DNA of 64,000 nucleotides from Gammaproteobacteria bacterium (GTDB lineage: Bacteria > Pseudomonadota > Gammaproteobacteria > Eutrophobiales > Eutrophobiaceae): NCBI GenBank assembly GCA_965243105.1, contig CBDEUC010000003.1, positions 2,487,541-2,551,540 on the forward strand, read 5' to 3'. Below are positions 37,075-59,774 of this stretch, piece after piece (position 1 is the first letter of the stretch; each line of letters begins with the position of its first letter). The notes beneath the pieces were generated by a model, which saw nothing but the letters and a program-made list of their open reading frames with translations, was not told where the DNA came from and made no database searches. The position numbers and the translations under genes are program-made.

Positions 37075-38676
37075 CTACTTTAACCGGAAGCCATCGTACC
37101 CGCTGTTTGCTACCTCGCGGCATTTTTCATAATAACCAGGACAGCCTATGTAGGGCATAAACACCCTTGGTTTCCCCGGGATGTTCGCCCCGAGATACCA
37201 GGAATTACAGCCCAGCAACAATGATGTTTCGGCAAGTTCATTCACGTGGCTTACCCAGGCCTGTTCAGCACTGACTTCAGCCTCCATCGAGCCAAGTTGT
37301 TGCTCGCGCAGGTAGACGATAGCGTCCCTAATATACTCAACGTGCTGCTCTATAGATGGCATCATGTTGCTTAACACCGAGGGAGAGCCAGGACCTGTAA
37401 TCATGAACATATTTGGGAAACCGGCAACTTGTAGTCCCAGGTAATTAAGTGGTCCGGCTTCCCACTTGTTCTTTAACGTTTGCCCATCACGACCACGTAT
37501 ATCTATTCGCAGCAGAGCACCTGTCATGGCGTCGTAGCCAGTAGCCAGTACGATAACGTCAAACTCGTACTCTTTATTTCCAACAAGGATACCCTTTTCT
37601 GTGTAGCCTTCGATGGGTGTTGAGCTGATGTCCACTAAATCAACATTTTCACGGTTAAAGGTTTCGTAGTAGCCAGTGTCCGTAACGACTCTTTTACAGC
37701 CGAATATGGTTTGTGGAAGCAGTTTTTCAGCAACAGCAGGATCTTTGACGGTCTGACGAATTTTTTCTCGTATAAAATTTGCGGCAATATCGTTGGCATT
37801 TTTGTCAACCAGCAGATCGGCGAAAACACCGTACCACTTCAAACCACCCAGCTCCCAGCGATGTTCCAGTTCCTTTCGAATCTCCTCTTGGCTCATTTCC
37901 CCGGCACAGCGTTCATTGGGTTCAAACTCCATGTTGCCAAACTGGCTTCGCGCAGAATCGCGCAAGTCGTCATAGTGGACCTTGATGTTTTCCTGCTCCC
38001 CCTCGTGAAAAGGGCGATTGTGAGAGGGTACGCTGAAGGCAGGTGTACGTTGAAAAACAGTCAGCTCTTTGGCCTGCTTCGCGATAGCGGTAATACTTTG
38101 CACGCCGGATGAACCGGTACCAATCACAGCGACTTTTAGCCCGGAAAAATCCACCTCTTCGTGGGGCCACTCCCCAGTATGATAGATCGTTCCCTTGTAG
38201 GCAGACTCGTTTTTAAACACCGGCCTGGAAGTGTTAGAGAGACAACCGGTTGCGAAGATGCAAAATTGTGCAGAGAAGTGTTCGCCTGTGGTTGAAACCA
38301 GCAGCCAGCGGCAATTTGCTTCATCATATGTTGCCGACTCAACGCGAGTGTTCAACCGGATACCATCGGCAAGTTTGAAGCGCTCTACCACGTGTTCCAT
38401 GTAGGAAAGGATCTCGGCCTGGCTTGAATATTTTTCTGACCAGGTCCAGTCCTGTTGTAACTGCTTGTCGAACTGGTAGGAATATTCCATGCTGGGCGCA
38501 TCGCAACGGGCACCCGGATAACGATTCCAGAACCAGGTACCACCGATGCCACTGCCAGCCTCGAGGACTTTTACAGAGAACCCGGCTTCCCGGGCACAGT
38601 GCAGCATGTACAGGCCAGAAAACCCTGCGCCTACAATAATGATATCCAGCTCTGAATTTTCCCCTGATCCTGTCAT
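37075..38676 (-). CDS. Baeyer-Villiger (type I flavin-dependent) monooxygenase
   Basis: FAD GxGxxG (VGAGFSG). BVMO fingerprint FxGxxxHxxxWP (FKGTIYHTGEWP). Second Rossmann motif GTGSSG. Confidence 0.75.
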   Translation of the reverse strand: MTGSGENSELDIIIVGAGFSGLYMLHCAREAGFSVKVLEAGSGIGGTWFWNRYPGARCDAPSMEYSYQFDKQLQQDWTWSEKYSSQAEILSYMEHVVERFKLADGIRLNTRVESATYDEANCRWLLVSTTGEHFSAQFCIFATGCLSNTSRPVFKNESAYKGTIYHTGEWPHEEVDFSGLKVAVIGTGSSGVQSITAIAKQAKELTVFQRTPAFSVPSHNRPFHEGEQENIKVHYDDLRDSARSQFGNMEFEPNERCAGEMSQEEIRKELEHRWELGGLKWYGVFADLLVDKNANDIAANFIREKIRQTVKDPAVAEKLLPQTIFGCKRVVTDTGYYETFNRENVDLVDISSTPIEGYTEKGILVGNKEYEFDVIVLATGYDAMTGALLRIDIRGRDGQTLKNKWEAGPLNYLGLQVAGFPNMFMITGPGSPSVLSNMMPSIEQHVEYIRDAIVYLREQQLGSMEAEVSAEQAWVSHVNELAETSLLLGCNSWYLGANIPGKPRVFMPYIGCPGYYEKCREVANSGYDGFRLK

Positions 38677-38760: not shown

Positions 38761-40509
38761 CTAGGTAGCGGCTTTATTTGTCAACCACAGGGTTTGATAT
38801 GGCGCCAGGCTGATGGTTGCCTGCTGATCCTCGAAACTTGTTCCACTGACCAGGTCTGTCCATTCATCAGTCACTATCAGGTTTATGTCCATCAGCCTGA
38901 GAGACTGTTCCCGGTGCGTGATATTGTGAAGGCAGAAGATGCTCTGGTCTCGCTCGAGGCTTTGTCTCCAGAAAGCGAATATTGTATCCCCCATGTGCAT
39001 GGTGAACTGGGTAGCATTTGGGTGGAAAGCAGCCTGGTTACGGCGAACCTTTATGAGATGTTTCAAGCGACTGAAAACTTGTGCATGGTGAGTTGCTCCT
39101 GAAAGCTTACTTTCCAGATCTTCGAGGTCCCAAATATGGCGGTTTATTGCACGATTACTGCCGGTGTGCTCCCGACGATTGTGATCATTTTCTGTGGCCA
39201 CGAGGCTGTGCAGGTAGAACGCAGGAATACCCTCAAGCCCGAGCATGATGGCATGGGCGCAAACAAAACGTTCAAGTTGCCACTCATCGGGCTCGCCCTC
39301 AAGAGTACCTTTCAACGCGTCAAACAGCGCAATATTAATTTCATAGGGTTTCTTCTCGCTGTCATTGAGTGCACGCCATGACACGTGACCGCCGAAGTTT
39401 TGCATGGTGTTTATCAGGGCGTCGAGGTCATCATCATCCAGTATTCCCTCGACAGGTCTTAGACCTATGCCATCGTGTGAAGCGATAAAATTAAAATATG
39501 TTGTTCCCATCTGTGCCGGCGGCATGCTCATCATCCAGTTCTTAAGGTGGTGACAGTTACCGGACAGCAGCGTGTAAAGTAAAAGCGGGGGTAATGAAAA
39601 GTTGTAAATCATATGGGCTTCGTTGGCATTACCAAAGTAACTGAGGTTCTCACGGTTGGGAATGTTGGTTTCCGTGATAATGAGGCTACCCGGCGTATGT
39701 GCTTCAGTGATACTACGAAACAGGCGAACGATCTCATGGGTTTCCGGGAGGTTAAGACAATTAGTACCCGGTTCTTTCCAGAGGAAGGCAACGGCATCAA
39801 GCCGAAATATTTTTACTCCTTTTTCAAGATAAAATCTTACAATCTCGACAAATTCGATTAATACATCGGGGTTTGAAAAATCCAGGTCGACCTGGTCTGC
39901 GCTGAAGGTGCACCAAACGTAACGCTCCCCATTCGGGGTATCTATCGCCTTCAGGAGCTCATTGGTTCTCGGTCGGACTACCATGGACAGGTCTTTATCA
40001 GGAGTGGTCGTATAAAAGTAATCTTTCCCGGGAGATTCGCCGCGCCTGAATTGTTCAAACCAGCGGCTCCTGCCGGAGCAGTGATTTATCACGAGGTCAG
40101 ACATCAACTTGAAATGTTCGGCGAGTCTTTCTATGTCTTCCCAATCGCCCATCGAGTCATTGACCTGCAGGTATTCCATGACAGCAAAGCCGTCGTCGGA
40201 ACTGTAGGGAAAGAATGGCAGCAAATGAACTATGGAGATGCTGTCAGCGAGGTAGTGATCAAGAAAATGCTGCAAGGAGGCAAGGGGATGCCTGGTATCC
40301 TGTTCAAGGGTGTTGCCGTAGGTAATAACCGCGATGTCGGATTCATTCCAAAGCGACGTATTATCAACACTCGGTTCGCAACTACTGTCTAACCCGGCAG
40401 CCTCCAGGATACGTGTTGAGATATTTTCAACATCGTGCTCGGGATATATGCGGGTAACGTGATTAAGAACGCGAGCGAACAGCCCGTCAGCTTCAAATTC
40501 TGCTGGCAC
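38761..40509 (-). CDS. GH13 sucrose-phosphorylase-like sugar phosphorylase (candidate glucosylglycerate phosphorylase)
   Basis: GH13_18-like architecture. It sits immediately downstream of, and is co-oriented with, glycosyl-3-phosphoglycerate synthase and phosphatase genes. Confidence 0.6.
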
Positions 40510-40515
40510 GACTTA

Positions 40516-41742
40516 CTACTCCGACGCAAATTCTTTCATGTCTTCATCCACGGCCGAGAGAAACTCGGTAGTGACCGTTGGTATTGCACTGGTAATACGG
40601 GTCCAACTGGGGATAAAAGGTGTTTCCATGGGATGGTCAAGAAAGTGGAGTCCGGCTTTCATAATATTCTCTGCAAATAATTCCACGGCCTTCTCCTCGG
40701 CATGAATGTCCAGGCTGAGACCGTTTATTGCCGCATCATTGTTGTATGTTTCAATAAAGTCCAGTGCAATTCTAAAGTAGGTAGCCTTTATTGTGCGAAA
40801 GGTTTCAGTATTAAACACCACGCCTGTCGTCGCCAGTTTTCTAAAAATTGCCTTGCTGATATCAATTGACATCTTGGAAAGCCCCTTGGACTCATCATCA
40901 AAGGACAAGGTCTGGTGCTTATGATCATACTGATCTGCAATATCCACCTGGCATAATCGATTATTCGCGTAATTACGGTTCATTTCTGAAAGAACACCAA
41001 TTTCAAGACCCCAGTCACTCGGGATTCGAATATCATTTATAACGTCCGTTCGTAACGAAAACTCACCGGCAAGCGGGTATCGAAAACTATCAAGGAATTC
41101 AATGTAGCTATCCAGGCCAAAAATCTTCTTGAGAGAACGTAGCAGGGGGGTGACCAGCAGGCGGCATACGCGGCCATTGATAGAGCCCGCTGCCACACGC
41201 GGGTAGAACCCTTTACAAAACACATAGTTAAAGTTCGGGTTAGCTACAGGATAGATGAGGCGGGCCAGCATTTGCCTGTCATAGGTAACAATGTCGCAGT
41301 CATGTAGTGCGACGGATTCGGCAATGTTTGCGGCATTCACGTAGCCGAGGCAATACCAGACATTACGTCCCTTGCCTAGCTCACGAGGCTGCAGGTTATG
41401 TGCTTTCAGTTTCTCATCGATTGCCTGCAAACGAGGGCCATCATTCCAAAGCACCCTGTGGTTACCCGGTAACCTGGCAAAAAAACTTAGAGCATGGCGG
41501 TATTGTTTCTCGTCGGCCCGATCAAGACCGATAACAATTTGTGACAGGTAAGGTACCTTGCATAGTTCATTAACAATCGTCGTTAAGGCGGGGCCTTCCA
41601 GTTCGGAATAGAGACAGGGAAGCACGAGCGCCATGGGCCGGGACGCTGAAAAACTGACCAGTTCCTGCTCGATTTCTTCGAGTGGCCGATGAGTCAGGTT
41701 GTGTAAAGTCGTTACAATTCCGTTCTGTTGAAAATCACCCAT
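40516..41742 (-). CDS. Glycosyl-3-phosphoglycerate synthase (glucosyl- or mannosyl-3-PG synthase family glycosyltransferase)
   Basis: About 400-aa GT-A-like protein with a DxD-like HDCDIV. Syntenic with an MPGP-family phosphatase. Confidence 0.5.
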   Translation of the reverse strand: MGDFQQNGIVTTLHNLTHRPLEEIEQELVSFSASRPMALVLPCLYSELEGPALTTIVNELCKVPYLSQIVIGLDRADEKQYRHALSFFARLPGNHRVLWNDGPRLQAIDEKLKAHNLQPRELGKGRNVWYCLGYVNAANIAESVALHDCDIVTYDRQMLARLIYPVANPNFNYVFCKGFYPRVAAGSINGRVCRLLVTPLLRSLKKIFGLDSYIEFLDSFRYPLAGEFSLRTDVINDIRIPSDWGLEIGVLSEMNRNYANNRLCQVDIADQYDHKHQTLSFDDESKGLSKMSIDISKAIFRKLATTGVVFNTETFRTIKATYFRIALDFIETYNNDAAINGLSLDIHAEEKAVELFAENIMKAGLHFLDHPMETPFIPSWTRITSAIPTVTTEFLSAVDEDMKEFASE

Positions 41743-41746
41743 TAGA

Positions 41747-42544
41747 TTAATCCCCTTCGCTTTCGTGTTTTTGCAGCAGGCTTAAGATTGCGTCGTTCCA
41801 GCCCTTTGGCCCGACCTGATTTGTTATCGTGAGTCTATCATGGCTAAAAACTGGTAGATGATGAACCGGGGAACGAACCAGGACTGCTTCGTCAGCGGTC
41901 TCCAGCATGCGTTTATCATTCTCGCTATCTCCCAGTGCAACGACCCATGGCTTCGTTGACCATTTTTCATGATAGTAATTTCTAAGCCACGCCATGGCGT
42001 CAGACTTGTCATATTCACCCTGAACATGAACGAAGCGCCCACCACGTTGTGTATGTAAATTTTGCAATGACAGGCGGTCACAAAAATCATCAAGATGTGA
42101 ATCCGATTGCCGCCACAGCAGCGGTTCACTGAAATCGCGTTTCATGGCATTCATTGCAGCTTTTATTTCAAGGCCGGTGGATGACTGGATTTCCTCGATC
42201 GTCATATCGGCGAAACCGATAAAGTTGTACTGCTGCTGTGTCCTGAGCCGGTGAATAATCTCCAGTATTTCCTGGCGCTTTTGCGCAAACGTTATTTCCG
42301 GGGTGGGCGTGTCGGAAAGGTATACCGCAGCGCCGTTTTCAACAACGAATGGGTCTGTCACACCCAGTTGTTCCCGAAGAGCGAGTATTTCTGCGGCAGT
42401 TTTACTGCTGCTGAAGACCAGTGGGATCCGGTGTTTCTTCAGGGCATCAATACCGGGCAATGCCGCTTCGTAACTGTAGGTGTGATGGTCCAGCAGGGTA
42501 CCGTCAAGGTCAGTGATTACTACGATTGAAGATGTGCCTGTCAC
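41747..42544 (-). CDS. HAD-IIB mannosyl/glucosyl-3-phosphoglycerate phosphatase (YedP/MpgP family)
   Basis: HAD motif I (ITDLDGTLL) and Cof-type cap region. About 265 aa. Confidence 0.65.
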   Translation of the reverse strand: MTGTSSIVVITDLDGTLLDHHTYSYEAALPGIDALKKHRIPLVFSSSKTAAEILALREQLGVTDPFVVENGAAVYLSDTPTPEITFAQKRQEILEIIHRLRTQQQYNFIGFADMTIEEIQSSTGLEIKAAMNAMKRDFSEPLLWRQSDSHLDDFCDRLSLQNLHTQRGGRFVHVQGEYDKSDAMAWLRNYYHEKWSTKPWVVALGDSENDKRMLETADEAVLVRSPVHHLPVFSHDRLTITNQVGPKGWNDAILSLLQKHESEGD

Positions 42545-44525: not shown

Positions 44526-46229
<1,704 letters not shown>

Positions 46230-47385: not shown

Positions 47386-47994
47386 ATGACAAAGCAGGTA
47401 TTGCGTATCGGAGTAGGCGGGCCAGTGGGCTCGGGTAAAACGGCCCTGTTAAATGCTTTATGCAAATCCATGCGGGATGATTATGAAATCGCCGTGGTGA
47501 CCAATGATATCTACACTCGCGAAGACCAGGAGTTTCTTATTCGACACGAAGCGCTTGAGTCGGAGCGCATCATGGGTGTTGAAACCGGGGGCTGCCCCCA
47601 TACCGCGATTCGCGAGGATGCCTCGATGAACATCAATGCCGTGGAACAATTGATAGACAAGTTTCCGGGGCTTGATTTTGTCCTGATCGAAAGTGGAGGG
47701 GACAACCTGAGTGCGACCTTTAGCCCGGAGTTATCCGACCTGACTATTTATGTTATTGACGTTGCCGCGGGCGACAAGATCCCGCGAAAAGGTGGCCCCG
47801 GAATTACAAAATCTGACATCCTGATCATTAACAAGATTGACCTGGCTCCCATGGTTGGTGCTTCCCTTGAAGTCATGGAGCGTGACGCAAGAAAGATGCG
47901 TGGTGAAAGACCCTTTATTTTCACCAACCTCAAAGAAAAGGATGGGCTTGGCGAGGTTATTGATTTCATCTGTGACAGGGGAATGCTTCACTGA
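47386..47994 (+). CDS. ureG: Urease accessory GTPase UreG
   Basis: P-loop GPVGSGKT, about 200 aa. Confidence 0.9.
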
Positions 47995-48051
47995 GTCAAT
48001 ATCGCCTGTAACTACAGGCACTTCGGACTGGCATCAGTTACAATTTGCTGA

Positions 48052-49776
48052 ATGGTTGCCAGTAATCACACAGCTTCGCAGGAATATTCCGCCTGGAACC
48101 CGGGAATTCTCTCAACGATTCCCCCGGAATACCGGGAACTGGAAACCATCCATGATCCCGCCAACGTAAGCAGTCGTTACAGCGAAGTCACCGACCTTTC
48201 CAGCACGACCGGTTTGCCCGTGGAAGAACTGGTGAGTTTCAGGCCGTCGCGACTTGTCCTGCACGAGGTGATTGTTCGTGTTACTGCTGACATCGTTGTC
48301 ATGGAAGGTGAGAAGGAAGAAGATCTCGGTATCAATTTTCGCCGTATCGCTAACTGCATCCTTGACAAGTACCTGGCGCCACGGCGTGGAGACATCGACG
48401 CCCAGTTTCAACAACGAAAGCTCGAGGTCGAGCAACGTGTTCGGGAAGAAATTGATTTTCTTCTCAATATCGATGCAGTAGCGGCGAGTGAAAGACCTTC
48501 CCTGCTTGCACGATTGCTTGGAAGGAAAACAGCAAGGCCGGGACTGGCGCCGCTTGATCGTGAGGCCTCGGAAATTGGCAGCATAAATCGTTACAAGCAA
48601 CTCGGGCTTGAAGCAAGCGATGCGCTGGACGTAGCGGTATATCGAAGCCTGTACCGTGTGCTGGGATCCCTGCTTGCGAAAAGAGGTTACATCGGCCGCG
48701 ATCCCCGGCTGTTGCAAGAAGTGTGCAGTATTCACGCGCTCAACTACCTGGCCAGCCATGATATTCGCGGGATTGTAGGGCAGGTGATTGATCAAGCCAT
48801 TGCGAAAGAAGCCTACCAGGTCATTCCCGATGCTGAGAATCCCATCCTGTTCAGCCTGAAAGGGGCTTCGGCAGCGGGAAAAAGTTCACTGCGACCCCGC
48901 TTGCGCGAGCTGATGGTCGAGCTCGGGATCAGCACCAATGCTTATGGCACCATCAGCCCTGATATCTGGCGCAGGCTACTGATTGACTACGACGGGCTGG
49001 GAGAGGCCTACAAGTACGCCGGTCGACTCAGCAGCAAGGAGGTCAACGTGATTGACGACAAGCTGGATCGCTACATTCGTGACAAGGCCGAGCAAAGACA
49101 GGCGCTACCGCACCTCATGGTGGATCGCTTTCGCTTTGACAGCTTTGATAGTGAAAAAGTTGGTCGGGTTTTGCAGGACACCTATGTCAGGCATATCGAT
49201 ACCATGTACATGTACTTTATTATCACGCCGCCGGAAGCCACGGTTGAAAGAGGCTGGTTGAGAGGCCTTGAGCGGGGTCGCTACAAGGCAGTTGATGATT
49301 TCCTCGGGCACTGTGTCGAAGCCTATGTGGGTATGCCAAGGCTCCTGTTCAAGTACATCGGCAAGACGAGGCCGAAGTACATGTTTGAATTTCTGGATAA
49401 CAGCGTTCCCAAGGGGAAATTTCCCTCGCTCGTAGCGAGGGGTAGCCAGGACCTGATGCAGGTTTATCGAATCGAGCCCCTGGTCAACATCGAGCGATAC
49501 CAGCGAATCAATGAACTGGCTAATGCCCCGGACAAGGTGCATGCACCGGCAGATGAACTGGTTGTCGCGAGGAACCTGCAGTTCATCAGGCAATGTGTAA
49601 AAGCATTCAAGACGATCGAGTTTCTTGAACCGGAAACAGCACAGCTCTATCTCAGGGTGAGTAATGGAAAATATTCCGTCACTGACCAGGAAGTATTTAA
49701 CGCCGCGCTGGGTGATGAGGTCCTGCGCGAAACCCTTGCCTGTCTTGCACCTGAGTTACTTGCTGAATCGGGTTAA
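48052..49776 (+). CDS. Hypothetical protein with a C-terminal P-loop (zeta-toxin/AAA_33-like kinase fold) domain
   Basis: Walker A LKGASAAGKSS and Walker-B-like HLMVDRFRFD. The N-terminal 270 aa are unassigned. Confidence 0.45.
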   Translation: MVASNHTASQEYSAWNPGILSTIPPEYRELETIHDPANVSSRYSEVTDLSSTTGLPVEELVSFRPSRLVLHEVIVRVTADIVVMEGEKEEDLGINFRRIANCILDKYLAPRRGDIDAQFQQRKLEVEQRVREEIDFLLNIDAVAASERPSLLARLLGRKTARPGLAPLDREASEIGSINRYKQLGLEASDALDVAVYRSLYRVLGSLLAKRGYIGRDPRLLQEVCSIHALNYLASHDIRGIVGQVIDQAIAKEAYQVIPDAENPILFSLKGASAAGKSSLRPRLRELMVELGISTNAYGTISPDIWRRLLIDYDGLGEAYKYAGRLSSKEVNVIDDKLDRYIRDKAEQRQALPHLMVDRFRFDSFDSEKVGRVLQDTYVRHIDTMYMYFIITPPEATVERGWLRGLERGRYKAVDDFLGHCVEAYVGMPRLLFKYIGKTRPKYMFEFLDNSVPKGKFPSLVARGSQDLMQVYRIEPLVNIERYQRINELANAPDKVHAPADELVVARNLQFIRQCVKAFKTIEFLEPETAQLYLRVSNGKYSVTDQEVFNAALGDEVLRETLACLAPELLAESG

Positions 49777-49819: not shown

Positions 49820-50581
49820 ATGACTACTTCGCTATTTGATTTATCAGGCAGGTTGGCACTGGTTACCGGTGCCAGTCGCGGGATTGGAGAAGAAATTGCC
49901 AGGTTACTGGCGGAGCAGGGTGCGCATGTCATCGTCTCCAGCAGGAAAATTGATGCCTGTGAAAAAGTGGCTGATTCTATTCGGGAAAACGGTGGAAAAG
50001 CATCAGCGTTTGCCTGTCACATCGGCGAGTTGGAGCAGATCGAGAAAATCTACCAGTATATTAAAGATGAGCACGGGAAGCTGGATATCCTGGTCAATAA
50101 TGCTGCTGCCAATCCCTATTACGGACACATCGTTGACACCGAACCGTCGGCCTTTCAAAAAACGGTAGACGTGAATATTCGCGGATATTTTTACATGACC
50201 TCCAGTGCCTGCAGGATCATGGGTGAAAAGGGCGGCAGTATCATCAATGTTGCATCCGTCAATGGTGTCAGGCCGGGGGATAAGCAGGGTATTTACTCTA
50301 TTACCAAGAGCGCCATTATCGGCATGACCAGGGCCTTTGCGCTGGAGTGTGGCCCGGACAACATTCGTGTAAATGCGCTTCTGCCGGGCCTGACCGATAC
50401 AAAGTTCGCCAGTGCATTAACCAGTAATGAGCAGGTGCTCAAGACCTGGTTAAAGCAAATACCGCTCAGGCGTTATGCACAACCTTCAGAAATGGCAGGT
50501 GCGGTGCTCTACCTTGCCTCTGATGCTTCTGCGTTCGCCACTGGTACCTGTATTACTGTTGATGGTGGTTACCTCATCTAG
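49820..50581 (+). CDS. Short-chain dehydrogenase/reductase (SDR)
   Basis: TGASRGIG NAD(P)-binding motif and NNAA; catalytic Y..K inferred. Confidence 0.8.
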   Translation: MTTSLFDLSGRLALVTGASRGIGEEIARLLAEQGAHVIVSSRKIDACEKVADSIRENGGKASAFACHIGELEQIEKIYQYIKDEHGKLDILVNNAAANPYYGHIVDTEPSAFQKTVDVNIRGYFYMTSSACRIMGEKGGSIINVASVNGVRPGDKQGIYSITKSAIIGMTRAFALECGPDNIRVNALLPGLTDTKFASALTSNEQVLKTWLKQIPLRRYAQPSEMAGAVLYLASDASAFATGTCITVDGGYLI

Positions 50582-54344: not shown

Positions 54345-55889
54345 TTAGTCCAGCAGTAACAGGATCACCAGTAACAGGAGTACACCGTGAATTGCGCTGA
54401 AGTAAAATTTACGAGGTGCTCTACCTTGCTGGCGCAATTGTTCCCTTTCTTCACTCAAACCGGCATATTTATCCGGCCAACTGGTTCCCATGTACTCGGC
54501 AAGGAAGTTGTTGGCTCGCTCCACCTGCAGGCCCATGTCACGCATCAGGTCATCTATGTAGTGAATATTCACCGGGCCAAGAAAATATCCTGCAGAGCGA
54601 TAGGTGTACTCCTGTATCCATTCCAGCACGCGATCGATTTCCTTTTCCATGAAATCCCTGGCGGGTAACCTGAGTTCACCCCTGAAAACCTGCGCCAACC
54701 AGTGTGCCGATACCTCGGCCGTCAGGGTGTTGTTAAAAGTTGATGCATAGCCAATGAAGCCGAGATGCTGTTCTGCAGGTGGCAGGATGTGACGGTAAAG
54801 TCGAAACTTGCCATCCTGCCTGGCGAGACCCTGTAGTTCCTCGCTGAGAAAATCAAAGCCCTGGTTCCAGCCGGTACCGAGAACCACGAGATCGGCTTCG
54901 AGCTCCTCGCCACATTCCAGCAGCAGGCCCTTTTCGGTAAATGACTTGATTGCTCCCTGCACCATGTCCACATTGCCGTCATTGGCCTGGGCAAAAAATT
55001 CGTCAGCCATACCAAGGCTTTCAAGACCGGTGGGCATGTCATGTTGTGGCACCATGATATCGGGCATGTTCAAACCACCACGCATCATGCGCATCTGGAA
55101 TTTCCAGAATAGTTTTGCCAGTGGCTTTCCAACGCCGTGCATGAACTTGTCCAGGGTATTCAGGGTGTGATACTTGAGGAATGATTCGGAGAAACGCGAC
55201 TGCAGCAGGTAATCCGTGGGTATACCGAAGTTATAACGGGGTAACATCCAGTGTGTTCGCCTGAACAGCAGGCTACAGTGACTCGCCGTTGTCGCGGCAA
55301 AGGCAGCGCAATCAAGCGCAGACTTGCCAGCACCCACGATGACAACACGTTTACCCCTTGAGATCTCCGCATCAACAAGATTGCTCGTATGCCTGATCTC
55401 TCCCCGAAACTTCTCCTGGCCCTCTATTTCCGGGATTCGCGGTGTTGAAAACACGCCATTACAAACCACCACGAAATTGAAACTTTCCGTGGATTCAGCT
55501 GTGTCTTCACCGGCACCTTTCACGCTTACCTCAAAATGCGTCTTACCGTCAGCGCTTATTCTTTCAATGTTTGTGATCTCACGGTTAAACTGGATACGTT
55601 CCGTAACGCCGAACTTGCCAGCATAGTCGGTAAGGTAGGCGTGTACATCGGTTGCACTGGGATAATCCTTAACATCATCTGGATAGGCGAGATCGGAGTA
55701 ACGATAAACTTTCTTTGCCGTGTTTGTTCGAAGCCCCGGGTAGGCCCGGGTACCTGTCCAGACTCCTCCAAGGTCAGGTTCCTTTTCGAATACGGTTACG
55801 TCAAAACCATCAGCAATAAACACCTTTGCAGTGGCGATGCCGGCCAGCCCGGCGCCAACGATGGCTACGCTACCCTGTGAAGTCGTCAT
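54345..55889 (-). CDS. Flavin-containing monooxygenase-like protein (FMO family) with C-terminal membrane anchor
   Basis: Two dinucleotide-binding motifs (VAIVGAGLAG, VVIVGAGKSALD). C-terminal TM (VLLLLVILLLL). Confidence 0.55.
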   Translation of the reverse strand: MTTSQGSVAIVGAGLAGIATAKVFIADGFDVTVFEKEPDLGGVWTGTRAYPGLRTNTAKKVYRYSDLAYPDDVKDYPSATDVHAYLTDYAGKFGVTERIQFNREITNIERISADGKTHFEVSVKGAGEDTAESTESFNFVVVCNGVFSTPRIPEIEGQEKFRGEIRHTSNLVDAEISRGKRVVIVGAGKSALDCAAFAATTASHCSLLFRRTHWMLPRYNFGIPTDYLLQSRFSESFLKYHTLNTLDKFMHGVGKPLAKLFWKFQMRMMRGGLNMPDIMVPQHDMPTGLESLGMADEFFAQANDGNVDMVQGAIKSFTEKGLLLECGEELEADLVVLGTGWNQGFDFLSEELQGLARQDGKFRLYRHILPPAEQHLGFIGYASTFNNTLTAEVSAHWLAQVFRGELRLPARDFMEKEIDRVLEWIQEYTYRSAGYFLGPVNIHYIDDLMRDMGLQVERANNFLAEYMGTSWPDKYAGLSEEREQLRQQGRAPRKFYFSAIHGVLLLLVILLLLD

Positions 55890-55993: not shown

Positions 55994-56749
55994 GTGACTT
56001 CAAGTTCAACCAGGCCCCTTGCACTTGTTACCGGTTCCGCCCGTAGAATTGGAGCCGATATTTCAAGATTGCTGCACGCCAATGGCTATGATCTCGCGCT
56101 TCACTATCGTGATTCTGAGAAAGAAGCCGAGCTACTCTGTGCCGAGCTGAATGAACTGCGCAATGAGTCTGCCTTTACGCTGCGTGCTGATCTTCGAAAT
56201 ATGGATGAGGTGGAAAAAATATTTGAAAAGCTTGCAGTTCGACATGATGGACTGCAGTTACTGGTGAATAATGCCTCGGCTTTTTACCCCACTGAACTTT
56301 CAAGCGCCACTGTTGAAGAATGGGATGATCTCTTTGACACTAACCTGAAAGCACCGTTTTTCCTGAGCCAGCACGCGGCAAAATATCTTCAGACCAATGG
56401 CGGTAGTATCGTTAATATTGTTGACATCATTGCGGATAAACCAAGAAAAGACTACACCCCTTACAGCGCGAGCAAGTCAGCGCTGGTTGCTATGACGCGT
56501 TCGCTGGCACGGGAACTGGCGCCGGACATTCGTGTCAATGGCGTTTCACCGGGCGCGATACTTTGGCCGGAGGACGCCGCCGAGCAGAGCGAAGAGGCGA
56601 AGCAAAAAATTCTTTCCGCGACACCGCTTGGCAGGATTGGGGAACCCGCGGATATTGCGCAGGCGGTGTTATTCCTGGCCCGCGACGCTGAATACGTGAC
56701 AGGCCAGGTATTATCGGTGGACGGAGGAAGCAGTCTTACTCGAAGTTAG
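55994..56749 (+). CDS. SDR-family reductase, pteridine-reductase/FolM-like
   Basis: VTGSARRIG cofactor motif. Overall resemblance to PTR1/FolM. Confidence 0.55.
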   Translation: MTSSSTRPLALVTGSARRIGADISRLLHANGYDLALHYRDSEKEAELLCAELNELRNESAFTLRADLRNMDEVEKIFEKLAVRHDGLQLLVNNASAFYPTELSSATVEEWDDLFDTNLKAPFFLSQHAAKYLQTNGGSIVNIVDIIADKPRKDYTPYSASKSALVAMTRSLARELAPDIRVNGVSPGAILWPEDAAEQSEEAKQKILSATPLGRIGEPADIAQAVLFLARDAEYVTGQVLSVDGGSSLTRS

Positions 56750-58275
56750 TTATTGCTTGGAAAAGAAAACTGCGCCTTTTCGCGCACACCACCTGAAGGC
56801 CATCGTTGCGTAATGGTCTTTCTTCGAGTGTAAAAACGCACGCTGTCCGGGCCGTAGGCATAGAGATCGCCAAACAGCGAACGCTTCCAGCCGCCGAAAC
56901 TGTGGCAGGCCACGGGTACCGGCAAGGGCACATTGATTCCCACCATGCCCACCTTGATCTTGTCACTGAAATATCTCGCAGCTTCACCATCCCGGGTGAA
57001 GATACAGGTACCGTTTCCAAATTCGTGATCGTCAATGAGCTGCATGGCCTGCTCTTCGGATTCGGCGCGTACCAGGCAAAGAACCGGTCCAAAAATCTCT
57101 TCCTGGTAAATACGCATGTTCGGGGTTACCCGGTCAAACAGGCAGGGACCAAGGAAAAAACCATTTTCATGTCCATCTACCACCAGTGAGCGTCCATCAA
57201 CGACGAGGTCAGCGCCTTCTTCAACACCGAGGTCCACGTAGCCACGTACTTTCTCAAAGTGGGGCCTTGTTACAAGGGGCCCCATGTCATTGTTGTTATC
57301 ATTGCCGTTACCCACGCGCAATGTTTCAAGTTGCTTACTGATGCCACTCGCTACGGCATCCGCGGTTTCATCGCCTATACATACCACTACCGAGATGGCC
57401 ATGCAGCGTTCTCCGCAGGATCCATAGGCTGCACCAATCAGCGCACTCACGGCATTATCAATGTCCGCATCGGGCATGACGATGGCGTGGTTTTTTGCAC
57501 CGCCAAGAGCCTGTACACGTTTGCCCTTCTCGGTGCCCTTTGTGTAAATATATTCGGCTATGGGCGTAGACCCGACAAAGCTGACCGCCTCAACGCGATC
57601 ATCTTCAAGCAGGGTATCCACGGCTTCCTTGTCGCCATTGACCACGTTAAAAACCCCGTCAGGAAGACCGGCTTCCTTTAATAACCGTGCAATCAGCATC
57701 GGTGCGCTGGGATCTTTCTCGGAAGGCTTGAGGATAAAGGTATTGCCACAGGCGATGGCCATGGGGAACATCCACATGGGTACCATGGCGGGAAAGTTAA
57801 ACGGGGTAATGCCTGCCACGACACCGAGAGGCTGTTGTTCTGACCAGCTATCAATAGCAGGCCCGACGTTCTTAGTATGCTCACCCTTTAACATCTGTGG
57901 AATACCGCAGGCATAGTCGACTACCTCGATGCCTCGACCCAGTTCACCCATGGCATCATCCAGCACCTTGCCATGTTCATTGGTGATCAGCGCGACAATT
58001 TCATGCGCATGTTCTTCCAATAATTGCTTGTAGCGGAACATGACCTGCGCCCGTTTTACCGGGGGCGTATCACGCCAGGCGGGGAAGGCGGCTTCGGCGG
58101 CAGCAATGGCCTGCCTCACCGTATCCGCAGAGGCCATGGCCACTTCGCGGCTCACCTCGCCGGTCGCCGGGTTGGTCACGGGTTGTGGACGGTTGCTGTC
58201 ATCAAGCACTTCACCGTTGATGAAGTGACCAAGCACAGTGCCTGTTTCAATGTTTACGTTTTCAGCAATATTCAT
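56746..58275 (-). CDS. mmsA: Methylmalonate/malonate-semialdehyde dehydrogenase (CoA-acylating)
   Basis: ALDH superfamily with the MMSDH-type N-terminus (GHFINGE) and catalytic Cys region. Confidence 0.8.
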   Translation of the reverse strand: MNIAENVNIETGTVLGHFINGEVLDDSNRPQPVTNPATGEVSREVAMASADTVRQAIAAAEAAFPAWRDTPPVKRAQVMFRYKQLLEEHAHEIVALITNEHGKVLDDAMGELGRGIEVVDYACGIPQMLKGEHTKNVGPAIDSWSEQQPLGVVAGITPFNFPAMVPMWMFPMAIACGNTFILKPSEKDPSAPMLIARLLKEAGLPDGVFNVVNGDKEAVDTLLEDDRVEAVSFVGSTPIAEYIYTKGTEKGKRVQALGGAKNHAIVMPDADIDNAVSALIGAAYGSCGERCMAISVVVCIGDETADAVASGISKQLETLRVGNGNDNNNDMGPLVTRPHFEKVRGYVDLGVEEGADLVVDGRSLVVDGHENGFFLGPCLFDRVTPNMRIYQEEIFGPVLCLVRAESEEQAMQLIDDHEFGNGTCIFTRDGEAARYFSDKIKVGMVGINVPLPVPVACHSFGGWKRSLFGDLYAYGPDSVRFYTRRKTITQRWPSGGVREKAQFSFPSNN

Positions 58276-58451
58276 AGTTGGACCTGCTGGTTATCAATTT
58301 GGGTCGGGTCTATCTCTCAATAGCCCACGGACGCGCTGTGAATACATCCATGTACGCTCAACGGTGGCATCCATGCCACCGAAGGTCCGTGTGTCTATTG
58401 AGAGACAGCCCAACAAGGGTTGTAAGGGAATTAAATTGTTGTTCCAGCTAA

Positions 58452-59774
58452 TCAGCTGGTGGCGTCTATCACTTTCCTGACGCTGGCAAAACCTTTTTCC
58501 AGTTCATCAACGCTGGAATCAAATATCGGGCAGAAAGCCACGATGTCACCGGTCGTCCTGACCAGCAGGTCTTCCTCCCAGAAACACTTCTTGTGGATCT
58601 CCATGCCGCGAATGCCGACTCCATCTGCAGAAGGCTTTACGTCTATGGCGCCCATTAAACCAATGTTTCTTACGTCGGTAACATCAGGATGGTCGTCAAA
58701 ACTGTGCAGCATGTCTCCAAAGGCCTGCTCCAGTGCACGGGCCTGTTCAAAAGGACCATCATTCTTATAGATGTCCATGGTGGCAATACCGGCTGCGGCA
58801 GCCACCGGGTGACCGGAATAGGTATAACCATGAAACATTTCTGCCATGTGCTCCGGTCCCTGCATGAAGGTTTCGTAGATTTCATCCCTTACCAGTACAG
58901 CACCCATGGGAATCACGCCATTTGTCAGGCCCTTTGCCAGGGTGATCATGTCAGGCATCACGCCGAAACGCTCCGTGGCAAAGGCATGCCCGAGACGACC
59001 AAACCCGGTAATGACTTCATCAAAGATCAGCAGGATGCCATGCTTGTCACAGATATCTCTCAGTCTCTGCAGGTAACCCACCGGGGGTGGCAACACGCCG
59101 GCGGAGCCGGCAACGGGTTCCACGATGACCGCAGCAATATTACTGCCGTCATGCAGGGCAATGACACGTTCCAGGTCGTCGGCAAAGTGCGCACCTGATT
59201 CTGGCTGTCCACGACTGTTTCGGCTGTTTTCAGGATCGTGGGTGTGCCGAATATGATCGACACCGGGGATAAGGCTCGCACTAAAGGCCTTTCGATTTGG
59301 CAACATGCCACCCACGGACATGCCACCGAAGTTCACACCATGGTAACCCTTCTCCCGGCCAATCAGGCGGGTGCGATTACCCTGGCCTCGAATGTTGTGA
59401 TATCCAAGTGCAATCTTCAGCGCTGTATCAACCGATTCGGAACCCGAGTTGGTAAAAAAGCAGCGAGTAAATGACGGTGGTGCCAGGTCAACCACCTTTT
59501 CTGCCAGTTCAAAGGACTTGCTGTTACCCAGGTTGAAGGTCATTGCATAATCCAGTTCAGCGACCTGCTTCTGAACAGCCTCAACAATTTTCGGGTGGCA
59601 ATGCCCAAGGCCACTTGTCCACAGGCCTGATGCCATATCAAATACATCGCGGCCATCGGTCGTGGTGTAGTAGCGACCACTTGCGGAGGCAATCACTCGC
59701 GGGTTTTTCTTGAAGTCCCTGTTCGGGGTAAAGGGCATCCAGAGTGCATCTGTTTTTTCTGCGGTGGTGTTCAT
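58452..59774 (-). CDS. Class III aminotransferase (beta-alanine/omega-amino acid:pyruvate transaminase-like)
   Basis: PLP-fold-I AT-III motifs. Co-oriented with mmsA. Confidence 0.8.
   Translation of the reverse strand: MNTTAEKTDALWMPFTPNRDFKKNPRVIASASGRYYTTTDGRDVFDMASGLWTSGLGHCHPKIVEAVQKQVAELDYAMTFNLGNSKSFELAEKVVDLAPPSFTRCFFTNSGSESVDTALKIALGYHNIRGQGNRTRLIGREKGYHGVNFGGMSVGGMLPNRKAFSASLIPGVDHIRHTHDPENSRNSRGQPESGAHFADDLERVIALHDGSNIAAVIVEPVAGSAGVLPPPVGYLQRLRDICDKHGILLIFDEVITGFGRLGHAFATERFGVMPDMITLAKGLTNGVIPMGAVLVRDEIYETFMQGPEHMAEMFHGYTYSGHPVAAAAGIATMDIYKNDGPFEQARALEQAFGDMLHSFDDHPDVTDVRNIGLMGAIDVKPSADGVGIRGMEIHKKCFWEEDLLVRTTGDIVAFCPIFDSSVDELEKGFASVRKVIDATS

Follow-up and report, generated by a model that had tools for sequence, protein, structure and literature searches.

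Gene organization of the locus

The stretch analyzed here (hereafter, the window) comprises 64,000 nt of a Gammaproteobacteria bacterium (GenBank assembly GCA_965243105.1, contig CBDEUC010000003.1, positions 2,487,541–2,551,540 of the forward strand), and the gene under study is a complete open reading frame (ORF) of 574 amino acids (aa) at positions 48052–49776 of the plus strand, which is predicted to encode a solitary three-domain kinase resembling the zeta toxins and AvrRxo1. Its start is an ATG, the first codon after an in-frame TGA. The same strand carries ureD, ureA, ureB, ureC, ureE, ureF, and ureG upstream, each strongly matched in Pfam, and the last of this urease cluster, ureG (47386–47994, plus strand; Pfam cobW/UreG, E-value 1e−42), is separated from the ORF by a 57-nt spacer (47995–48051, plus strand). 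A short-chain dehydrogenase/reductase (SDR) gene (49820–50581, plus strand; Pfam adh_short_C2, E-value 3.8e−67) begins 43 nt 3′ of the ORF and is followed by GlcD-, GlcE-, and GlcF-like genes. Both ureG and the SDR gene are regarded as neighbors, ureG lying outside the system of interest. An earlier note on this DNA, made from the letters alone, had placed a 574-aa ORF on the same strand as ureG after a 57-nt gap and ahead of an SDR and glcDEF, and the coordinates and Pfam matches agree with that description.

The protein divides into an N-terminal part, consisting of a conserved sub-region (aa 1–100; 48052–48351, plus strand) and a variable helical stalk (aa 101–255; 48352–48816, plus strand) delimited by predicted secondary structure, conservation, and substitution rates; a zeta-toxin/AvrRxo1-like P-loop kinase core (aa 256–500; 48817–49551, plus strand) recognized by fold comparison and weak profile matches; and a small alpha/beta C-terminal domain (aa 501–574; 49552–49776, plus strand), which is the least conserved part. 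Two long antisense ORFs inside the gene (48112–48795, minus strand, 227 aa; 49105–49593, minus strand, 162 aa) were regarded as shadow ORFs arising from a GC-rich coding region.

A widespread gene under purifying selection

A search of 5.8 billion proteins returned more than 5,500 homologues at an E-value ≤1e−3, and the best 120 of them were all full-length, with 55–86% identity. Scanned exhaustively with HMMER, the 50%-identity representatives gave 633 clusters, 109 of them at an E-value <1e−30; about 35 full-length clusters reached down to 23–33% identity, and all of these retained the order of N-terminal domain, core, and C-terminal domain. When the gene was compared with its 86%-identical orthologue (locus L085), the ratio of nonsynonymous to synonymous substitution rates (dN/dS) was 0.117 overall, 0.10 in aa 1–100, 0.20 in aa 101–255, 0.04 in the kinase core, and 0.26 in the C-terminal 74 aa, and every region is thus under purifying selection. 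The number of homologues and the overall dN/dS value indicate that this is a real gene and not a chance ORF. Apparent short forms starting near residue 190 were considered as natural split pairs of N-terminal domain and kinase, but were rejected, because they proved to be contig-edge or frameshifted fragments.

Fold and family relationships of the kinase core

An AlphaFold2 (AF2) model was built from an alignment of 109 sequences sharing 35–86% identity, and had a mean predicted local distance difference test score (pLDDT) of 91.4 and a predicted template modeling score (pTM) of 0.89. It consists of a helical N-terminal domain, a five-stranded P-loop core over about aa 262–500, and a small alpha/beta C-terminal domain over aa 510–574. 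In a Foldseek search of the Protein Data Bank (PDB), PezT (2p5t), zeta (3q8x and 1gvn), and AvrRxo1 (4z8v and 4z8q) occupied the first ranks, with E-values between 2e−4 and 3e−3 and a probability of 1.0, and were followed by adenylate kinases, PFKFB kinase domains, and Pnkp1. Proteins named “Zeta toxin domain” also made up most of the best named matches in the viral fold library BFVD.

At the sequence level, the NCBIfam model of XopAJ/AvrRxo1 (NF041405) matched aa 256–359 with 26 bits (E-value 4.9e−6; family cut-off, 300 bits), and the best phmmer match among PDB sequences was AvrRxo1-ORF1, at an E-value of 0.15. When 33 diverse family members were scanned singly, weak matches to Zeta_toxin appeared in 19 (best E-value 4.1e−5), to AAA_33 in 12, and to XopAJ/AvrRxo1 in 11 (best E-value 4.2e−8). 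A profile search against PDB sequences yielded just P-loop and coiled-coil noise (FtsY, CHMP1a, and UCK; E-values 0.04–0.4). No match was found in PHROG or PADLOC, and thus nothing links the protein to a listed defense system or phage family. On the evidence of the model, the core belongs at the superfamily level to the zeta-toxin/AvrRxo1-like P-loop kinases, which bears out the earlier note's assignment of the C-terminal half to a zeta-toxin/AAA_33-like kinase, as well as the P-loop fold that it had proposed to check by structure prediction and Foldseek. Because the curated thresholds were not reached and the partner genes are absent (see below), we describe the protein as working like Zeta_toxin and XopAJ, but as a member of neither family.

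Conserved catalytic residues and a distinct putative acceptor loop

In the alignment of the 33 family sequences, which extends down to 22–23% identity, residues G271, G276, K277, R281, D304, R307, E330, D358, F360, P394, R400, R404, and R410 of the core are invariant, and S278 is nearly so, both in this alignment and in the 109-sequence one. The Walker A P-loop GASAAGKS (aa 271–278; 48862–48885, plus strand) contains G271, G276, K277, and S278; the Walker B strand continues into a family-specific putative acceptor loop, HLMVDRFRFDSF (aa 354–365; 49111–49146, plus strand), in which conservation of R359, R361, D363, and F365 is 90% or higher. Both motifs had been picked out in the earlier note and are conserved in the 109 homologues. 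Between them lies the SPDIWR motif (48955–48972, plus strand), with D304 as the predicted catalytic base and R307 as a predicted phosphate contact, and beyond them the predicted lid helix, PPEATVERGWLRGLERGRYKA (49228–49290, plus strand), which carries the three invariant arginines R400, R404, and R410 and corresponds to a helix over residues 394–408 in the AF2 model.

The phmmer alignment to AvrRxo1 pairs K277/S278 with K166/T167, D304 with D193, and R307 with K196, with SPDIWR aligned to NPDVFK. In AvrRxo1, these residues are conserved catalytic residues equivalent to K46/T47, D67, and K70 of zeta (PMC4938570), and the D193N mutant of AvrRxo1 is catalytically impaired (PMC5087710). R400, R404, and R410 are candidate equivalents of the lid arginine R158 of zeta (R287 of AvrRxo1). 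The putative acceptor site, in contrast, differs. Acceptor (NAD) binding in AvrRxo1 involves G227, R247, S249, R250, and Y257 (PMC4938570), and the loop of our protein aligns to VVDKRLSRE of AvrRxo1 such that F360, F362, and D363 occupy the positions of R247, S249, and R250. The residues with which zeta binds UDP-GlcNAc are E100, T118, R120, T121, and T128; via the AvrRxo1 alignment, the counterpart of this loop is DRFRFDSF, which is unlike TGRTT, and the invariant E330 could be the counterpart of E100. Just after the DRFRFDSF loop, aa 366–372 have pLDDT values <50; no other segment of the core is modeled with low confidence, and a flexible loop would be expected to look so. From the conserved residues, we infer that the protein is an active kinase using the zeta/AvrRxo1 mechanism on a different acceptor. 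Because the acceptor-binding positions differ, the acceptor is probably another molecule than that of AvrRxo1 or zeta; by analogy with these enzymes, our guess is a small metabolite that contains a nucleotide and belongs with the dinucleotides or nucleotide sugars.

N- and C-terminal domains

The conserved sub-region of the N-terminal domain contains the motifs AWNPG, FRPxRLxLHE, and EDLGxNFR, and its residues W15, R67, and R97 are invariant among the 33 sequences. Mean conservation is 0.40–0.63 in aa 1–100, 0.24–0.44 in aa 101–255, and 0.22–0.41 in the C-terminal domain; the constraint on the first 100 aa comes close to that on the kinase core. In the AF2 model, short helices extend to residue 80 and are followed by long helices over residues 89–146 (58 residues), 170–187, 191–211, and 218–253, with a poorly conserved, low-confidence loop around aa 141–170. 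The C-terminal domain was modeled with pLDDT values of 96–98 across most of its length. The pTM of 0.89 points to packing of the domains into a single body. The median isoelectric point is 5.8 for the N-terminal domain, 8.85 for the mildly basic core, and 5.2 for the C-terminal domain.

The earlier note had recognized nothing in the N-terminal part, and this held in every search: it is a distinct domain of about 255 aa, for which no significant PDB sequence match and no match in Pfam, PHROG, or PADLOC was found. A fold search weighted to the N-terminal domain gave no PDB match better than an E-value of 0.5, although the model used was an earlier one, built from 32 close homologues, which was confident in the N-terminal domain but poor overall (core pLDDT 66, disordered). 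The size of the N-terminal 255 aa (compared with 83 aa for the antitoxin domain of EzeT) and the conservation of aa 1–100 speak for a substrate or regulatory module that is an integral part of the protein rather than for a plug.

Genomic context and inheritance

The order ureG–kinase gene–SDR was limited to relatives of at least 71% identity. In the 86%-identical relative, the gene follows ureE-F-G and precedes the SDR gene; in the 71%-identical relative (locus L086), it lies between a sequence encoding the last 22 residues of UreG and the SDR gene. Only in these two loci was a close SDR (87–96% identical) found directly 3′ of the gene; elsewhere, SDRs were distant (≤30% identical) and none was adjacent. 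Neither ureG nor ureF was found in the flanks (up to 8 kb on each side) of any other related locus, including those of the 57–59%-identical clade. When the flanking ORFs of 77 compared loci were clustered, no family-wide neighbor emerged, and a search of the 700 bp flanking the gene on each side for conserved small ORFs gave just a clade-restricted GFA-family gene. Taken over about 85 loci, neither a neighbor nor a small partner gene was conserved. The earlier note had pointed out the proximity to the urease operon and had proposed examining its conservation in relatives; the comparison limits it to the 86% and 71% relatives. Its placement behind ureG is lineage-specific synteny without functional meaning, reflecting at most co-transcription in this lineage.

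The spacer between ureG and the kinase gene contained neither a terminator-like site nor a sigma-70-like site in our scan, and so read-through from the ure operon into the gene is possible in this lineage. It differs from that of the 86%-identical relative at 3 of the 57 nt, although the flanking genes have synonymous divergences of 0.4–0.7, and it folds into a hairpin (−21.6 kcal/mol, z = −2.3) with a CCUGUA/UACAGG stem and no U tract. This hairpin may act in regulation or processing; the spacer of the 71%-identical relative is unrelated in sequence.

Elsewhere in the family, the neighbors are unrelated to one another: creatininase/GFA, RecBD/ABC transporter, IscRS, SulP, BenE, and pyruvate carboxylase. 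In the 57–59% clade, the gene has a divergent creatininase-family gene on one side and a GFA-family gene on the other. More broadly, a divergent creatininase-family gene (PF02633) precedes the homologue in many loci of the 52–59% clade (L001, 7117–10164; L003 and L004, 7101–10172; also L005–L017, L023, and L025), and in most of these, a 140-aa GFA/CENP-V-type zinc protein (PF04828) is encoded about 40 nt 3′ of it on the same strand, often followed by a beta-propeller gene, a cytochrome P460-like gene, and the gene for DNA polymerase II. The GFA gene is the sole recurrent same-strand partner found in the family and is limited to the 52–59% clade. Assignment of a function from the neighbors was considered and rejected, since the partners (creatininase/GFA, RecBD, IscRS, and others) are clade-restricted. 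In Azoarcus sp. KH32C (pAZKH; L087, 5001–8110), the stop codon of the homologue overlaps by 7 nt with the start of a gene for a “PLP-dependent aminotransferase family protein,” and the region upstream contains gabT and genes for aldehyde dehydrogenase. Genes for aminotransferase and aldehyde dehydrogenase enzymes also occur 7–10 kb downstream in the window, but this likeness is probably a coincidence.

A scan of one genome per species gave at least 568 confirmed matches in Gamma- and Betaproteobacteria, including Halomonas/Billgrantia, Marinobacterium, Motiliproteus, Njordibacter, Thauera, Azoarcus, Sulfuritalea, Rhodocyclus, and Achromobacter; alphaproteobacterial members are also present. 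The gene was found in only 5 of 72,556 plasmid records, all of them replicons of 0.43–2.8 Mb, and in none of 50,697 phage records. Its GC content equals that of its flanks, and the neighbor-joining tree of the family follows taxonomy, with Halomonadaceae, Njordibacter, Motiliproteus, and Betaproteobacteria grouping coherently. With few and large plasmid replicons, no phage record, native GC content, and a tree congruent with taxonomy, the gene looks like a resident chromosomal gene and not like a mobile addiction or defense module. The toxin framing touched on in the earlier note, which had named toxins and small-molecule kinases alike as common roles of zeta-like kinases and had seen in the extension a possible regulatory or antitoxin-like module fused in cis, is not sustained by these observations or by the lack of a partner gene.

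Proposed mechanism and alternative explanations

We propose, at about an even chance of being right, that the gene encodes a solitary chromosomal three-domain phosphotransferase of the zeta/AvrRxo1 type, which acts on a nucleotide-like metabolite and has a built-in N-terminal regulatory or substrate module. Mg-ATP would be held by the P-loop (K277/S278) and D358, and D304 would deprotonate the acceptor hydroxyl, while the transferred phosphate would be stabilized by R307 and the lid arginines R400, R404, and R410. The acceptor would be bound by the flexible DRFRFDSF loop, probably together with the conserved first 100 residues (W15, R67, and R97). The N-terminal helical and C-terminal alpha/beta domains would then serve as regulatory or substrate-recognition parts of one rigid protein, and not as a degradable antitoxin.

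Several observations weigh against this proposal. The Foldseek template modeling scores against PezT, zeta, and AvrRxo1 were just about 0.5 (target-normalized); the protein had no match in Pfam at an E-value ≤1; and all the Zeta_toxin, AAA_33, and XopAJ profile matches fell far under the curated thresholds. Our literature search found no paper on the family. The protein is 86% identical to its L085 orthologue, compared with 99.5% for UreG (dN/dS 0.005) and 95.6% for the SDR; this faster evolution is less housekeeping-like than the distribution suggests. Finally, a D-x-x-R/K motif combined with lid arginines is also typical of polynucleotide kinases, and a nucleic-acid acceptor would be compatible with it.

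The last point bears on the view that the protein phosphorylates the 5′-hydroxyl of a polynucleotide or RNA, or another macromolecule, in the manner of T4 Pnk, Pnkp1, or the AAA_33 kinases, in RNA repair or modification, with the flanking domains recognizing the macromolecule. Its D-x-x-R motif (D304 and R307) is also the signature of polynucleotide kinases (compare D35/R38 of T4 Pnk); Foldseek also matched Pnkp1 (PDB 4xrp_A; E-value 0.04, root mean square deviation 4.3 Å over 172 columns) and a phage “putative Pnkp1” in BFVD (E-value 9.7e−4), and the weak AAA_33 matches in 12 of 33 members and the mildly basic core point the same way. However, zeta, PezT, and AvrRxo1 ranked above all Pnk matches in both fold libraries, the sequence-level matches were just to AvrRxo1 and Zeta_toxin, the acidic character of both flanking domains is unexpected for nucleic-acid-binding modules, and no ligase, phosphatase, or Hen1-type repair partner occurred near the gene in any of the loci. 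We consider a macromolecular substrate distinctly improbable. The chance that the protein is instead linked to urease, as a kinase regulating urease maturation or nitrogen metabolism and encoded by the last gene of the ure operon, appears extremely small: the shared strand, the 57-nt distance, the terminator-free spacer that is nearly identical in the 86% relative, and the gene order kept in the 86% and 71% relatives would all suit it, but ureG and ureF were beside the gene in none of the other loci examined, including those of the 57–59% clade, and the neighbors across the family are unrelated. The comparative context largely refutes this link.

Two further explanations retain a toxin. In one, resembling EzeT of Escherichia coli, the N-terminal domain or its first ~100 residues would act as a cis antitoxin blocking the ATP site, until proteolysis, temperature, or another stress freed the kinase to poison a nucleotide-sugar or dinucleotide pool. 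A helical N-terminal domain and a C-terminal zeta-like kinase are indeed joined in a single polypeptide that lacks a partner gene, evolution of the gene is faster than that of its neighbors, the first 83 residues of E. coli EzeT quench its UDP-N-acetylglucosamine (UNAG) kinase both in cis and in trans (PMC4826407, PMC4803016), and large solitary zeta homologues are a recognized class (PMC4803016). However, the N-terminal domain is three times larger than that of EzeT (255 aa versus 83 aa; about 90 aa for epsilon), and the invariance of W15, R67, and R97, together with the dN/dS of 0.10 in the first 100 aa, is more like that of a catalytic or substrate-binding module than that of a plug. Neither an epsilon nor a PezA fold occurred among the top 50 matches of the N-terminal-weighted search (all with an E-value >0.5), which is a weak negative, given the poor overall quality of that model, and the taxonomy-congruent gene is nearly absent from plasmids and absent from phages. 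An EzeT-like toxin is therefore rather unlikely, though it keeps an appreciable chance. In the other explanation, the protein would be the toxin of a classical two-component system, with the antitoxin as an unrecognized neighbor or encoded elsewhere. The zeta-like fold fits this, orphan zeta/PezT toxins without a known antitoxin have been reported (PMC10532202), and one clade has the small GFA-family gene about 40 nt downstream; but no small ORF is conserved up- or downstream across the family, the GFA neighbor is limited to the 52–59% clade and is replaced by an SDR in the window, and the gene is not on mobile elements. We regard such a two-component system as very improbable.

The proposed solitary phosphotransferase can be extended to a bolder, unlikely but consequential form, in which the protein founds a branch of zeta/AvrRxo1 kinases that are not toxins, are inherited vertically, and occur in hundreds of free-living Proteobacteria. 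Such a branch would make a new phosphorylated nucleotide metabolite (e.g., a 3′-phosphorylated dinucleotide or nucleotide-sugar, serving as a signal or metabolic brake) under the control of a new helical sensor domain. If so, the “zeta toxins” would be a selfish offshoot of an older physiological enzyme class. Zeta-type kinases are known almost solely as toxins or effectors: UDP-GlcNAc is the molecule poisoned by zeta, PezT, and EzeT, and 3′-NADP the product of AvrRxo1. The present family keeps the catalytic machinery of these kinases, but has another acceptor loop, two extra domains, and no partner gene, and is not carried on mobile elements. Identifying its acceptor might bring to light a new phosphorylated nucleotide metabolite and might tell whether zeta kinases that are regulated in cis have ordinary roles in physiology. 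As regards annotation, “zeta toxin family protein,” the name that NCBI gives to relatives, claims more than is known, and the urease adjacency is unfit for the transfer of function.

Other features of the window

Upstream of ureG, an Rfam match to 5_ureB_sRNA (RF02514) at the gathering level covered the full model length (44675–44961, minus strand; 111.7 bits) and is antisense to the 5′ portion of the gene for the urease alpha subunit (44526–46229, plus strand). Since that model was built antisense to Helicobacter ureB, the match may reflect only conserved urease coding sequence. Alternatively, a genuine antisense RNA may exist here, outside Helicobacter. A three-gene block at 38761–42544 (minus strand) encodes a GH13 alpha-amylase-family protein of 582 aa, a 408-aa ORF without a Pfam match, and a 265-aa hydrolase resembling HAD/sucrose-6-phosphate-phosphatase, and its layout resembles that of a glucosyl compatible-solute synthesis cluster. 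There are also two flavin-containing monooxygenase-like genes less than 20 kb apart (37075–38676 and 54345–55889, both on the minus strand). The latter has a strong match to such monooxygenases (E-value 2e−50) and adjoins both the glcDEF-like genes and a group of SDR, aldehyde dehydrogenase, and class-III aminotransferase genes (55994–59774).

Comparison with known systems

Among the systems compared, T4 Pnk, Pnkp1, and the PF13671 kinases share a P-loop kinase fold with D-x-x-R, but their fold and profile matches were weaker than those of zeta and AvrRxo1, and, unlike these kinases, our protein has no associated phosphatase, ligase, or Hen1 modules and its accessory domains are acidic.

The zeta and PezT toxins, which belong to the type II toxin–antitoxin systems epsilon-zeta and PezAT and are UDP-GlcNAc 3′-kinases (Pfam PF06414; PDB 1gvn, 3q8x, and 2p5t), gave the top structural matches (E-values 2e−4 to 1.5e−3), and their P-loop lysine, aspartate base after strand 2, and lid arginines (PMC4938570, PMC10532202) all have likenesses in our protein. 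The differences are nonetheless considerable: the protein is 574 aa long, compared with about 250–290 aa; neither an epsilon nor a PezA gene lies beside it in the 77 loci; PF06414 is not matched at an E-value ≤1; and the DRFRFDSF motif stands where the UNAG-binding loop would be. Furthermore, omega-epsilon-zeta is mostly plasmid-borne (PMC10532202), and the present gene is essentially absent from plasmids.

The best sequence-level relative is AvrRxo1/XopAJ (PDB 4z8q and 4z8v; NCBIfam NF041405), a Xanthomonas type III effector that acts as a NAD/nicotinic acid adenine dinucleotide (NAAD) adenosine-3′-kinase. Both have a P-loop K/T(S), a catalytic aspartate in xPDxx[KR], and a Walker B aspartate (PMC4938570), and both have extra N-terminal sequence before the kinase core. 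Unlike AvrRxo1, our protein has F360, F362, and D363 in place of R247, S249, and R250; it scores 26 bits against the cut-off of 300; no gene for an Arc1/AvrRxo1-ORF2-type chaperone-antitoxin lies downstream in the 77 loci, the window having an SDR there; its N-terminal domain is much larger and unrelated; and a C-terminal domain is added. The hosts of the family are free-living marine, soil, and wastewater Proteobacteria, without a type III secretion context.

The architecture resembles in outline that of EzeT of E. coli, likewise a solitary chromosomal single chain with a helical N-terminal extension before a zeta-like kinase and no partner gene (PMC4826407, PMC4803016). In contrast to the 83-aa antitoxin domain of EzeT (PMC4803016), however, the N-terminal domain described here spans 255 aa, with a conserved first 100 aa and a long stalk, and is accompanied by a C-terminal domain. 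EzeT is found in E. coli and several related organisms (PMC4826407), whereas the present family spans the Gamma-, Beta-, and Alphaproteobacteria.

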